From positions 385,578,001 to 385,642,000 of the forward strand of contig OZ024740.1 in assembly GCA_964016885.1 (NCBI GenBank): DNA of 64,000 nt, in the 5' to 3' direction. The position numbers and the translations under genes were made by a program. Origin of the DNA: Eledone cirrhosa (lineage: Eukaryota). This document shows positions 5,241 through 20,057 of this stretch, piece after piece (the first letter of the stretch is position 1; each line of letters opens with the position of its first letter). A model generated the notes under the pieces. That model did not search any database and was not told where the DNA came from. It saw only the letters and a list, made by a program, of their open reading frames with translations.

Positions 5241-5717
5241 AACTAACAAAGGACTTTGTTAGTTTCAGAAGATCTCGTTAAGGGTGAAAGCAGAAATTCT
5301 TTGCTTAAACTTTAATCTGTTATTATAAGTAGCACTCTACAGTTTGTAGGACTGGAGTATAAATAATATAAGATCGAAAGATGGTTAAAAGAGTTCCAAC
5401 TATTTTATTATGCGCATTTCAAAAACAAATATCATATATATATATATATATATGTATATATATACATATATATATATATATATATATATATATATATATA
5501 TATATATATATGTATTTCGTTTCTGAATTTGTTTAGCAAGATTCTTTATCTGAAAACGTGTGTTGAAACTGATATTGTTATACTTTGGGAGGGTCATTTT
5601 GCCAATAAGAAACACACGCACCAGTTGCTTTCACTTCAATTTATTATAATAAATTTAGGAATTTATAAATTCCCGGTTGGTTGGTTGGTTCCACAACCAG
5701 ATGGTTGTTTATATATT

Positions 5718-5760
5718 GTCAAAGTTCTTTCGTCACACATTCTGTGACCTCTTCAGTGAC
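5718..5760 (-). ncRNA. Minimal type I hammerhead ribozyme (Penelope pLTR family 1)
   Basis: Minus strand reads gtca-CTGAAGA-g-GTCACA gaatg TGTGAC-GAAA-g aa c-TT-tgac. It lies ~200 nt downstream of the PLE stop codon. Confidence 0.75.
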
Positions 5761-5962
5761 TGGGGATTCTTTTCCAAGTTTTTTGTGCCTCTCCTTTGTT
5801 CTGTCCTACACCATTTTGTTTTTGTGTGTACGTTGTGTGCTTAGTTTGCGCATGTGTTACATCCGGGTGTCTGTGTGTGTTTATATTCGTTTATTTATTT
5901 GTTTATTTACATGTTACTGGTTGGTTGTTTGTTCTATGTGCGTGTGTGTTTTCATTTTGTCC

Positions 5963-7192
5963 TTAATTGTAAGTTGTGATGTTGCTGTTCCACTCATGTT
6001 TTCTATTTAATTTTGGTTGTAATTCATTTATGTTTATTGCCTCTGTGATTTGTCTAAACATTGCGTCTTTTCTGTTTGTAGATTCTATTTTTATTTCTAT
6101 GTTCTCTAATTTCCCCTTATGTTCTATTTTAGCATGTTGGTAGAGTACAGATGATTCTTTACTATCTTGAAGGTCTCGCCAGTGTTCATTTATCCATTCC
6201 CCTATACTACGAGCTGTCTCACCTATGTACACTATATTTTTATCTCTACATTGTCCTTCAGTACATCTTATGCTATATACTACATTTCTAGTTTTACAGT
6301 TAATATGGGGGCTTAATTTACAGATTATACATTTCTTATCTATACAGGGAGGTCTTTGAAAAAGGTATGTCTTGCTAATAAGTGTTTTTATGGAGGTACC
6401 TGGTCTTTCTACTATCTTAATATTGAGTTTATGTTTATCTAGGGCCCTTCTAAATTTGTAAGCTAATTCACCTCTAGGGGTTGTATCGATAAACATTACA
6501 CTCTGGTATTTATTGCTATCATACCATGAGTTTATTCTATTTGCCTTATTCCTAGTTCTTTCTATTCTATTCCAAAATTTGCTCCTATACAAGGGGCAGG
6601 TCCCATTTATGTCATTATTTACCATTTTTTCCCATTTGGTTCTGGCTCCTCTATACACTCTGATTTTATCCCTCTGATTGTAACCAGAGACCTGCATACG
6701 GTGGATGAAGTGTTGTATGTGTCTCTCTAGTTCTTCAGGGTTGCACATACGGGACACGTTTCTCATCACCCGTACCAAATCCGCAATCAGTATGTTGATT
6801 TTGGTATGGTCCGAAACAGCTGAGTTTCGGTGGATCAGATATTTGGAAGTCATGGGTTTGGCATAATGGGAATGGAGGATTTGTTTTTTGTTATTAATGG
6901 TATCTAACCAGAGCTCTGTGTCTAATACAGGTAATCGATGGTTGGGGTGTTTGCTTGGGTAGTCTATAGTAACTCTAATACTCTGGTGGATGGAGTTAGC
7001 TATTTGCTGGATTCTTTCCATTGTGTTTTTCTCTAATTCCTGACTGTTCGCTAGTGGGGGTGTCTTAACTACGATGTTTATATCATCAACGTAGCGGGAG
7101 TACATTATCAGCGTTAAGGGGTCTTCTAATTGTTCTTTAAGTTTAAGTTTAAGTCTACTGTCCCACCATACCATGAATAGGTTAGCTATGTC
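5963..7192 (-). CDS. Penelope-like RT (partial) plus GIY-YIG endonuclease, uninterrupted frame
   Basis: YSRYVDDI RT motif, LPVLDTEL, Cys-rich linker (CIDKKCIIC...C), then NVVYSIRC...YIGETARS...INEH and EA..I..LQPKLN. The N-terminus of the predicted 453-aa ORF is microsatellite read-through. Confidence 0.9.
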   Translation of the reverse strand, partial: DIANLFMVWWDSRLKLKLKEQLEDPLTLIMYSRYVDDINIVVKTPPLANSQELEKNTMERIQQIANSIHQSIRVTIDYPSKHPNHRLPVLDTELWLDTINNKKQILHSHYAKPMTSKYLIHRNSAVSDHTKINILIADLVRVMRNVSRMCNPEELERHIQHFIHRMQVSGYNQRDKIRVYRGARTKWEKMVNNDINGTCPLYRSKFWNRIERTRNKANRINSWYDSNKYQSVMFIDTTPRGELAYKFRRALDKHKLNIKIVERPGTSIKTLISKTYLFQRPPCIDKKCIICKLSPHINCKTRNVVYSIRCTEGQCRDKNIVYIGETARSIGEWINEHWRDLQDSKESSVLYQHAKIEHKGKLENIEIKIESTNRKDAMFRQITEAININELQPKLNRKHEWNSNITTYN

Positions 7193-7340
7193 TATATGTA
7201 TATATATATATATATATATACACATACACACACATATATATATATACATATATATATATATGTATATATATATATGTAGGAGGTGAGTTTTATTGTAGCA
7301 CAATAAAACAAAGCTTAGTAACACTCTACAGTTTGTAGGA

Positions 7341-7668
7341 CTGGAGTATGAATAATATAAGATCGAAAGATGGTTAAAAAAGTTCCAAGTATTTTATTAT
7401 GCGCACTTCAAAAACAAATGTCATATATATATATATATATATATATATACATATATACATATATATATATACATATATATATACATATATATATATATAT
7501 ATATATGTATATATATATGTATATATATATGTATATATGTATATATATATATATATATATATATATATATATATATATATATATATGACATTTGTTTTTG
7601 AAGTGCGCATAATAAAATACTTTGAACTTTTTTAACCATCTTTCGATCTTATATTATTTATACTCCAG
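7341..7668. repeat. Inverted repeat (~82-bp arms) around a (TA)n tract
   Basis: ctggagtatgaataat...caaatgtca [TA]n tgacatttg...tactccag. The left arm is also a direct repeat of ~5350-5433. Confidence 0.9.
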
Positions 7669-8054
7669 GTTTTGTCCCTCGTAATATATATATATATATG
7701 TATATTACGAGGGACAAAACCTCAGAACTTGTCAACCCTTATTAAATGGTCAGTCGATTCTACGAAAATGTAATGTATTATAGAACATTTTCTTCTTGTC
7801 TCCTTAAAACCTCGTTCATTCATCCATATATATCTACAATCGTTGCTATTCTTGCTTTAAATTAATCTTCTCCACGCTGGTTCTAAATAATCTCCCTCAT
7901 TGCTAACTACCCCATATCCCTCCCGCCCCCACTCTCCACCTTTACTATTTGGACCAATCACAAGTCAACGGCCTATACTATCACTACTGGCTGCTTTTCG
8001 ATATGATGGATGGACTAAAGAATTTCTGGAGAGTCTGAAGAATCTGGACACTCG

Positions 8055-17626: not shown

Positions 17627-17671
17627 AGTCATAGTTCTTTCGTCACACACTCTGTGACCTCTTCAGTGACT
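17627..17671 (-). ncRNA. Minimal type I hammerhead ribozyme, intact
   Basis: agtca-CTGAAGA-g-GTCACA gagtg TGTGAC-GAAA-g aa c-TA-tgact. Confidence 0.8.
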
Positions 17672-17762
17672 GGGGATTTCTTTCTTCGTTTCTGTGCCTT
17701 TCCAAACAAAATGGCGTAGGATAGAAGAAAGGAAAGGCACAGAAACGAAGAAAGAAATCCCC

Positions 17763-17807
17763 AGTCACTGAAGAGGTCACAGAGTGTGTGACGAAAGAAC
17801 TATGACT
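17763..17807 (+). ncRNA. Minimal type I hammerhead ribozyme, intact
   Basis: AGTCA-CTGAAGA-G-GTCACA GAGTG TGTGAC-GAAA-G AA C-TA-TGACT; stem I AGTCA/TGACT is perfect. Confidence 0.8.
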
Positions 17808-18060
17808 ATATATATATAAACAACTATCTGGTTGTGGAACCAACCAACCAACCAGAAATTTATAAATTTGTAAATTTATAAATATATAATAAATTAAATT
17901 GAAGTGAAAGCAACTGGTGCGTGTGTTTCTTATTGGCAACATGACCCTCCCAAAGTATAACAATATATATATATACATATATATATATAACTTATACACA
18001 CACACATATGTATATGTATATATATATATATACATATATATATATACACATACACATACA

Positions 18061-19388
18061 TGGAAGGGATTGCCTGACGCAGCTACTGCATCACTTTGAT
18101 GACATTTTGAGAGCCTTGGGAGAGGGTTCCAACACTGATGTTATCTACCTTGATTTCAGCAAGGCCTTTGACAGGGTTGATCATAACATTCTACTGAGAA
18201 AGCTGTCCAATATTGGTGTCACTGGAAAGCTGCTGCAGTGGATCAAGAGCTTCCTGTCAAACAGAACCCAACATGTTGTAGTTGAAGGAGTCAAATCCAG
18301 CCCAGCCAAAGTCAGTAGTGGGGTCCCACAAGGCACTGTGTTGGGCCCACTTCTCTTCATCATCTATATTAATGACATCACTGACATCATCAAACACAGC
18401 AACATTAAAATTTTCGCTGATGATTCCAAGCTCCAAAAGGTCATCAATGGCGTGGATGACCGGATAAGCCTTCAGTCAGACCTACTGGCTGTTACCCAAT
18501 GGGCGGAAAAGAACAACATGTTACTGAACGAAGACAAATTCGAACTGATCCACTTTGGAAAAGGGGATGCTCTGAAACTCCCGTACTCCCTTCCCTCCGG
18601 GGAAACTCTCGTGGCATCTAACAACATCAGAGACTTGGGAGTAACCGTGGACAGCAACATAAGCTGGGCCACGTATATAAGCAGCAAAGTTGACATGGCC
18701 CGCAGAATGTGTTCCTGGATCCTCAGAACCTTCCAGTCGAGAGATTCCCACACCATTATCCTTCTCTTCTCTACTTTTGCCCGACCACACCTTGAATACT
18801 GTTGTCCACTGTGGTCTCCCCACACGAAACAAAGTATCATGAAACTTGAAGCTCCTCAAAGGGCAATCACGAAAAAGATAGATGGCATGTCAGACCTTGA
18901 CTACTGGGGTCGACTAGAAAACCTGAAACTTTACTCACTCCAACGTCGCCGTGAGCGTTATATTATCTGCATGATGTGGAAAATGTTCCATCATCACTGC
19001 CCAAATGATGTTGGCATCGCCTTCAAGATACACCCAAGGCTTGGGCCCCGTGCTATCCGTCCCATACAAAAATCTAAATCGCAACTCATAACAACAATAC
19101 GGCACAATTATTTCACCTCAATCGGCCCTGCTCTCTTCAACATCACACCAGGACACGTCAAAACAGAAACTGACCACACAAAATTCAAGAAGTCTTTGGA
19201 CAAATTCTTCCAAGTAATCCCGGACAAACCACCCACACCCGGATATGTCTCCACAAACAGTAATTCTCTTCTCGAATGGGCCATGGTGCCCAAATCCTGA
19301 ATTGAAAGACTTCGCCAGGTGGTGCTATTAAGTTAGACATGGCCTGGGCCAATACTGGCCAAAACATTTCAAAGTTATTCAAAGTTAC
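18061..19388 (+). mobile_element. CR1-group LINE, 5'-truncated, with an open RT frame (18061-19300)
   Basis: VIYLDFSKAFDRVDH, SGVPQGTVLGPLLF, FADD, RPHLEYC..LWSP and LYSLQRRRER. The 3' end is a short tandem tcaaagtta. Confidence 0.92.
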
Positions 19389-19833
19389 ACACATATATAT
19401 ATATACACATACACACACATATATATATGTATATGTATATATATATGTATATATATATATACATATACACATACACACACATATATATATATATACATAT
19501 ATATACATATACATATATATATATACATATATATATACATGTACATATACATATATATATATATATGTATATATATATATATACATATACACATACACAC
19601 ACATATATATATATATATATATACATATATGTATATATGTATATATACATATATATATATATATATATATATATATATATATATATATGTATATATATAT
19701 ATATATATATATGTATATATATATATATATATGTATATGTACATATATATATGTATATATATATATATATATACATATACACATACACACACACATATAT
19801 ATATATATACATATATGTATATATATATGTATA

Positions 19834-20057
19834 TATTTCGTTTCTGAATTTGTTTAGCAAGATTCTTTATCTGAAATCGTGTGTTGAAACCGATATTGTT
19901 ATTCTTTGGGAGGGTCATGTGGCCAATAAGAAACACACGCACCATTTGCTTTCACTTCAATTTATTATATATTTATAAATATATAATAAATTGAAGTGAA
20001 AGCAACTGGTGCGTGTGTTTCTTATTGGCAACATGACCCTCCCAAAGTATAACAATA
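19834..20057. mobile_element. Short palindromic Penelope pLTR pair (family 1), no HHR
   Basis: Folds at attta|taaat (19975/19976). The left arm has the tail and the right arm ends at gtataacaata. Confidence 0.88.

Follow-up and report, generated by a model that had tools for sequence, protein, structure and literature searches.

A stretch of 64,000 nucleotides (nt) from the genome of Eledone cirrhosa (contig OZ024740.1; the whole of it is called the window below) carries a copy of a Penelope-like element (PLE) and, among (TA)n microsatellites, several DNA palindromes assembled from the pseudo-long terminal repeats (pLTRs) of such elements, most of them with hammerhead ribozyme motifs. We regard these palindromes as very probably by-products of Penelope insertion and, going by their sequence, read them as defunct remnants, truncated at the 5' end, that an ordinary autonomous element left behind on inserting. 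The anatomy of the copies, a tail confined to one arm, AAT or AT ends abutting (TA)n, centres that differ between palindromes and variants shared by partner arms are all directly visible.

Inverted pairs and their parent element

Each of P1-P4 and B (Table 1) consists of inverted 5'-truncated copies standing head-to-head with their 3' ends outward, an arrangement characteristic of PLEs with an endonuclease (EN+). In the four palindromes of families A and B that retain both outer ends (P1, P2, P4 and B) the tail is present on exactly one arm; P3 was left out of this count because one outer end is lost, that of its left arm being replaced by another repeat (17471-17528). The unrelated palindrome E, unproven as a member of the Penelope family, shows the same one-sided extension, and five out of five has p ~0.03 under an independent 50:50 choice. 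The centre junctions differ in all five A/B palindromes, with no fixed palindromic unit recurring: those of P2 and P3 are blunt, with ~97 and ~27 nt, respectively, unique to the tail-less arm, and that of E measures 7 nt. No arm terminates at the ribozyme cut site, and every sufficiently long arm runs through it.

Over a block of ~157 nt that can be compared across six arms, there are 4, 5 and 0 substitutions between partner arms, compared with 7-13 between arms of different palindromes. Five of the six informative columns outside an ambiguous AT-rich block group the arms by palindrome; five further agreeing columns inside that block were excluded from the count. As some of the arm-shared variants segregate family-wide in independent reads (loop-3 G/A at 44/56%; a TATA insert in 8,057 of 114,349 reads), they mark source lineages. 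A G8U change common to the tail-less arms of P1 and P2 raised the possibility that P2 had arisen from P1 by inverted duplication; this was rejected because other variants group the arms within each palindrome.

On the evidence of its sequence, the parent is a C-terminal-endonuclease (EN+) Penelope-like retrotransposon, and all the hammerheads belong to pLTRs. The YVDD and YIGET motifs of the window copy share one open reading frame (ORF), in which a reverse transcriptase (RT) is followed by a C-terminal GIY-YIG endonuclease. Fourteen longer proteins match this ORF, the best five being 40-46% identical RT plus GIY-YIG proteins of 870-1175 amino acids (aa); the window protein itself has no match in Pfam or PDB, and one homolog gives weak Pfam RVT_1 and GIY-YIG matches below the cut-off. 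The CCHH residues of the endonuclease (C366, C377, H420, H425) and the linker C350-X4-C355-X2-C358 between RT and endonuclease are invariant in all eight aligned proteins. A C-terminal GIY-YIG domain with CCHH, a CX2-5CxxC linker and a preference for (TA)n are likewise features of the Neptune and Nematis clades as described in PMC8557442, where the linker is tied to that preference; a Neptune/Nematis-type assignment would here follow from the CX4CxxC linker rather than from an RT tree. Besides being truncated, the window copy probably has a dead endonuclease, since a Trp (6196-6194) replaces an Arg kept by all seven aligned homologs. The first 65 residues of protein P0001 were rejected as element sequence, being derived from an upstream microsatellite and another repeat, and scanning viral contigs at the protein level brought up no relative.

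In sense order the pLTR comprises the hammerhead, a directly adjoining TATA-like run, an ATG and an optional 58-nt tail. The ATG stands 138 nt past the ribozyme cut site and opens a frame of 84 nt to the element end. Copies end at either of two places, 26 nt past the ATG or 58 nt beyond that, and both types of end meet (TA)n with AAT or AATAT. Families A and B are alike in little besides this final stretch of ORF start and tail, which is also the best-conserved portion: the ORF starts share 19 of 22 residues, six of the nine differing codons being synonymous, and four of the five tail variants listed in reads fall at third codon positions. Because the A/B similarity is confined to this frame, with mostly synonymous changes, we infer that the pLTR carries the start of the ORF. 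The likeness of the A/B ORF start to the N-termini of proteins P0004 and P0005 is by eye only, and a BLASTP comparison of the 22-aa ORF start with the homolog P0005 was not significant. In both families and in relatives the ATG is preceded, at a distance of ~12-35 nt, by a GTGCGT/GTGAGT-like motif similar to a splice donor or a promoter element. A promoter in the pLTR of a PLE is described in PMC2377424.

The same structures recur beyond the window. Four of 24 sequencing runs were aligned to the P1 right arm; the 139,817 of 12.5 million reads that align in run X22, from restriction-site-associated DNA (RAD) sequencing with its biased sampling, suggest that the hammerhead pLTR family is high-copy. 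An end at 13031 without the tail, running on into (AT)n, also recurs outside the window, with 2,645 raw reads from X22 and 160 X1 contigs showing it. Starts or ends of X22 reads at 12737, 12478, 12921, 12946, 12962 and 13077 were rejected as element or RNA ends and taken as RAD restriction ends, on the basis of GCATGC at 12737 and AATT at 13074 in the window sequence, the other sites being assumed to be alike. Among 42 related loci on metagenome contigs, six have a minimal hammerhead on the sense strand following the ORF, where shuffled sequences give 0.1 on average. Two loci, L002 and L004 (41-42% identity), end seven codons past an ATG at an AAT/(TA)n junction, and L008 starts with an inverted piece of its own pLTR at the 5' end. 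The window holds no partial tandem with a full-length ORF; L001 is a tandem (L001:201-4898), with a 1,566-aa ORF and a 105-bp tandem repeat near the start. With regard to target-site duplication, both insertion ends sit inside (TA)n.

Every structural feature of the palindromes is already published. Pen2/Pen2a of Adineta vaga, as described in PMC3846280 and PMC8557442, likewise show a head-to-head inverted 5'-truncated copy, an ORF start inside the pLTR, a one-ended tail that extends the frame, a TATA-like run and AT-rich targets. Their tail is 30-40 nt long versus 58 nt (A) or 48 nt (B) here; unlike them, both arms in the window are mere stumps with no ORF between, and no full-length copy is present. 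The hammerhead pLTR family itself may already be listed in the supplements of PMC4209133 and PMC8557442. Our literature search, which covered few subscription journals, turned up no paper on cephalopod PLE ribozymes and none testing the mechanism by arm-shared variants or tail counts.

Table 1. Positions in the window (or in the named related locus) of the PLE copy, the palindromes, the hammerheads and associated features
Feature	Position	Strand	Remarks
Penelope-like ORF, 3' part	5963..7192 (frame 7192-5966)	minus	RT motif YVDD, thumb, CX4CxxC linker, GIY-YIG endonuclease; 5'-truncated at TA/CA tract
3' pLTR of ORF copy	5514..5962	minus	hammerhead 5761-5717, ATG at 5597, 58-nt tail 5571-5514, ends at (TA)n
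P1 left arm	12115..12463	minus	tail-less; hammerhead 12324-12280 with G8U; centre: 26-nt inverted piece, 3-nt AAT microhomology
P1 right arm	12464..13089	plus	endonuclease 3' end, hammerhead 12829-12873, TATA-like 12873-12882, ATG 13006, tail 13032-13089
P2 left arm	13540..13811	minus	has tail; intact hammerhead 13798-13754; shorter arm at centre
P2 right arm	13812..14119	plus	tail-less; ~97 nt longer at centre; hammerhead 13923-13967 with G8U
Family-B palindrome (B)	15092..15782		1-nt centre at 15460; tail ~48 nt, left arm only; cores 15382-15349 (minus), 15536-15569 (plus)
P3	17527..17965		arms identical over 177 nt; hammerheads 17671-17627 (minus) and 17763-17807 (plus) both intact; right arm tail-less
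P4	19835..20054		short family-A palindrome lacking a hammerhead; only left arm has tail; centre without spacer, on 10-bp palindrome native to element
Palindrome E (unrelated)	16770..16987		head-to-head; one arm extended by ~62 nt; (TA)n at both ends; without hammerhead
Family-A hammerheads	5761-5717 (ORF-linked), 12324-12280, 13798-13754, 17671-17627	minus	mismatch scan
Family-A hammerheads	12829-12873, 13923-13967, 17763-17807	plus	mismatch scan
GTGCGT/GTGAGT-like motif	12970-12980; 15190-15200 (minus); L002:2560-2575; L004:1738-1752		
Related loci with hammerhead	L004, L008, L018, L021, L029, L030		loop 3 palindromic in all (TTAA, TCGA, TATA x3, CG)
(TA)n-rich target zone	4667..20113		3,262 bp of TA arrays in 4.6-20.3 kb versus 810 bp in rest of window

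Two primings, fold-back and other possible origins

Tentatively, and with our expectation close to evenly balanced, we favour a route of two primings, by which both cut strands of (TA)n would prime on RNA from one source and the aborted cDNAs would be joined. The endonuclease, perhaps guided by the CX4CxxC linker, would cut both strands, and an RT-endonuclease dimer would start by short AT pairing at two neighbouring RNA sites, one priming falling at the tail end and the other 58 nt upstream. Because all arms of sufficient length continue past the cut site, the template RNA would not have been cut by its own ribozyme. The two truncated cDNA ends would finally be joined bluntly or at self-complementary motifs. 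In vitro, according to PMC11167929, the PLE of the anole (Anolis Poseidon PAc) cuts and extends both strands with a preference for ATT, and starts on uncut RNA at two sites bounding the tail; the two ends bounding the tail, the AT-rich target and the uncut template have their like here, with the difference that the PAc ribozyme overlaps the start codon and the present one lies 138 nt upstream. We favour the two-priming route because it fits this two-strand cutting and extension and these two start sites. It also suits the tail on a single arm, the sister arms, and P2, where ~97 nt of the tail-less arm are absent from the tail arm and would not have been copied from it.

Alternatively, a single cDNA started at the tail end might fold back and be copied as DNA, with synthesis or endonuclease resolution stopping at the tail boundary. 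This is a substantial contender, though on the whole we doubt it. It explains the arm-shared variants and the one-sided tail directly; PMC3846280 proposes self-priming, with an antisense template, to account for junctions of this type, and PMC8557442 proposes endonuclease resolution in the case of the tail. It needs a tail arm that is longer than or equal to its partner, the opposite of what is seen in P2, which would then require a later deletion, and the native 10-bp palindrome at the centre of P4 would pair better between two strands than within one.

Several points weigh against the two primings, or against a coupling of them. A fold-back accounts equally well or better for the tight centres (0 nt in P4, 1 nt in B, 7 nt in E) and for the snap-back with AAT in P1, the asymmetry of P2 could come from a later central deletion, and the arms could have been homogenised by arm-to-arm gene conversion. 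The G8U change shared by P1-left and P2-right is the one informative column that conflicts with the arm pairing; the observed matching of arms is the best of 15 possible, which corresponds to p ~0.07; and the sample consists of five A/B palindromes from one window. The window's own palindrome junctions do not occur among the 15 of 81 strand-switch joints listed from reads, a result that also speaks for a post-insertion origin (below). In the in vitro work of PMC11167929 the start site did not differ between strands, and coupling was thus not seen there. Coupled two-strand insertion, in which one dimer would prime both strands on the same RNA at two fixed sites and so produce exactly one tail and two sister arms, is a possibility in which we place limited belief. 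Were it true, high-copy (TA)n sinks would record thousands of countable events, with a bearing on the inverted repeats of Penelope elements in general. The formation of tandem and inverted structures and the microsatellite bias are named as open questions in PMC8557442, and the steps after priming are left unvalidated in PMC11167929; the palindromes are a natural record of this unsettled insertion step, in which tails, sister arms and the longer arm can be counted to separate two primings from a fold-back.

The earlier note on this DNA had correctly recognised Penelope pLTRs with minimal type I hammerheads, placed head-to-head in (TA)n. It did not remark on the tail being confined to one arm or on the pLTR containing the start of the ORF. 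Its further step, to a mostly non-coding ribozyme-retroelement system, is unsupported in view of the five different centres, and a separate non-coding system also sits ill with a P1 arm that reaches endonuclease coding sequence, a P4 without ribozyme, and an ORF start and tail that are the best-conserved parts. This idea, taken as that of a palindromic ribozyme element without coding function that is transcribed and moves in trans as one unit, we consider very improbable. In its favour, short copies do predominate in the window, a second organism (organism B) shows higher conservation of the ribozyme than of its flanks, two tail-less arms have G8U in common, and pLTRs alone can mobilise sequence in trans (PMC3846280). 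Against these stand, beside the centres, P1 and P4 already named, strand-switch joints that are scattered in reads (15 of 81 listed, some being likely ligation chimeras) and the predicted burial of the ribozyme stems in the hairpin. Non-LTR retrozymes (10.64898/2026.07.22.740005) are alike in being PLE-derived, non-coding and equipped with a type I hammerhead; they are described as direct tandem repeats of a fixed unit with a hammerhead in each, and the copies here are single or inverted pairs of varying length.

We give similarly little credence to palindromes formed once the elements were in place, through repair by fold-back where (TA)n cruciforms are fragile, or to an assembly artefact. 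Other palindromes without evidence of Penelope sequence do exist in the window (54934-55292, 13455-13496, 16447-16484, 5238-5267), and the arms of P3 are identical. Those of P1, P2, P4 and B, however, differ by 2-6 substitutions, the duplicate stops at the same tail boundary every time, in independent reads too, and the relative L008 has its inverted pLTR piece at the 5' end.

Hammerheads within and outside the palindromes

A mismatch scan recovered the seven family-A motifs that the earlier note had reported, one downstream of the Penelope ORF and the other six distributed over three head-to-head palindromes; a core pattern located its two family-B motifs at 15.3-15.6 kb (cores at 15382 minus and 15536 plus). 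The two compensatory pair differences between the families in stem II and the predicted cut site after 17802 also agree with it. The motif sequence it quoted is exact in two of the seven copies (17671-17627 minus and 17763-17807 plus) and differs in the other five: at 13798-13754 (minus) only the unpaired base departs, 12324-12280 (minus) and 13923-13967 (plus) bear G8U, 12829-12873 (plus) has one mismatch each in stems I and II, both private, and the ORF-linked copy has a CUU cut site and a 4-bp stem I. With a type I descriptor, a check of the kind it had suggested, set strictly to a minimum of 4 bp for each of stems I and II, four of the seven family-A copies are recognised; the other three and both family-B copies, whose stem I has just 2 bp, are missed. 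Family A thus combines the CUGANGA/GAAA/UH core with stems I and II of a minimal type I hammerhead (four of seven strictly). The strict descriptor has 4 matches in the window and 0 in each of 50 local shuffles, and a loose core pattern 14 against a shuffle mean of 4.1. In Rfam, which had also been proposed as a check, none of the 150 matches listed out of 187 (E<=1) is to a hammerhead family, and pattern scans of viral contigs and of metagenomes returned no match.

Two-sided changes are seen at 11 of 13 base pairs across 10 aligned motifs including relatives, rows that were partly picked by the same descriptor and so biased toward structure. More than 98% of plus-mate reads restore both stem mismatches of the P1 right-arm hammerhead; among the 40 of 116 variants listed none affects a core nucleotide, and the remaining 76 could hold some. 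In organism B (run X4) the summed contig depth over the hammerhead is 996, 2,698 and 491, versus 37 upstream and 200-296 downstream, with further peaks on the ORF start and tail, depth not being copy number. As far as these data go, the core is conserved above the pLTR flanks, as the earlier reading had required.

The 6-bp stem II, 4-5-bp stem I, vestigial stem III and unpaired base before G10.1-C11.1 are shared with the metazoan PLE hammerheads of PMC4209133, which also describes paired hammerheads on opposite strands 100-700 bp apart in Schistosoma, and reports no activity of minimal PLE hammerheads as monomers and low activity as dimers; the dimer view is reviewed in PMC6765202. Unlike that of the six relatives, loop 3 of family A (GAAC or GGAC) is not self-complementary, and a dimer would hold two central purine mismatches. 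The 6-nt loop-3 duplex is predicted at +1.4 kcal/mol for GAAC and -1.7 for GGAC, versus -5.0 for a perfect palindrome, implying weak dimer pairing for GGAC and none for GAAC.

For an isolated arm the computed pairing probabilities of stems I and II are ~0.5 (0.45) and 1.0, and in the whole of P2 and P3 both are 0.0, in agreement with the proposal that read-through RNA of a palindrome could inhibit its own ribozyme. The hammerhead inside a palindrome is therefore predicted to be inactive; as the antisense arm is always transcribed first, no co-transcriptional folding window would be left for it. We infer that the ribozyme is inherited cargo, conserved since it serves the full-length element, where its use is likely to be the dimer- or protein-assisted processing of read-through RNA. 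Cleavage by the anole PLE ribozyme is reported as protein-assisted and dispensable for insertion (PMC11167929). If transcribed, the 80-320-bp hairpins could feed small-RNA silencing of the family.

The (TA)n zone and its other repeats

The TA arrays form a compound repeat, of which the plus strand holds 60 copies of TATACATTTATA and the minus strand 2, every one of them within 11695-17465; this is the pattern that a single long array of one orientation would leave if later insertions had broken it up one after another. More families end at (TA)n, namely E (16770-16987), a pair D (13241-13311 with 14421-14449), and 5328-5428, 7317-7421 and 7588-7668. Both E and the D pair have two alternative ends, with extensions of ~62 and ~36 nt, which suggests further Penelope-like families without detected ribozyme; several families in this (TA)n sink show the same mark.

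A frameshifted long interspersed nuclear element (LINE) with apurinic/apyrimidinic (AP) endonuclease, RT and PHD finger, which we take to be RTE-type, is present at 7700-11620 (plus), 52426-54867 and 35887-36494, and many LINE 3' fragments end in (TGA)n beside TA tracts. A 5'-truncated non-LTR RT copy lies between TA/CA tracts at 18063-19385 (plus). The 359-bp palindrome at 54934-55292, without Penelope evidence, is 99% perfect, has a 1-nt centre and adjoins an inverted RTE 3' end. Short perfect hairpins with 14-21-bp arms, two of them centred on even 6-bp palindromes, stand at insertion junctions or TA tracts at 5238-5267, 7668-7723, 13455-13496 and 16447-16484.

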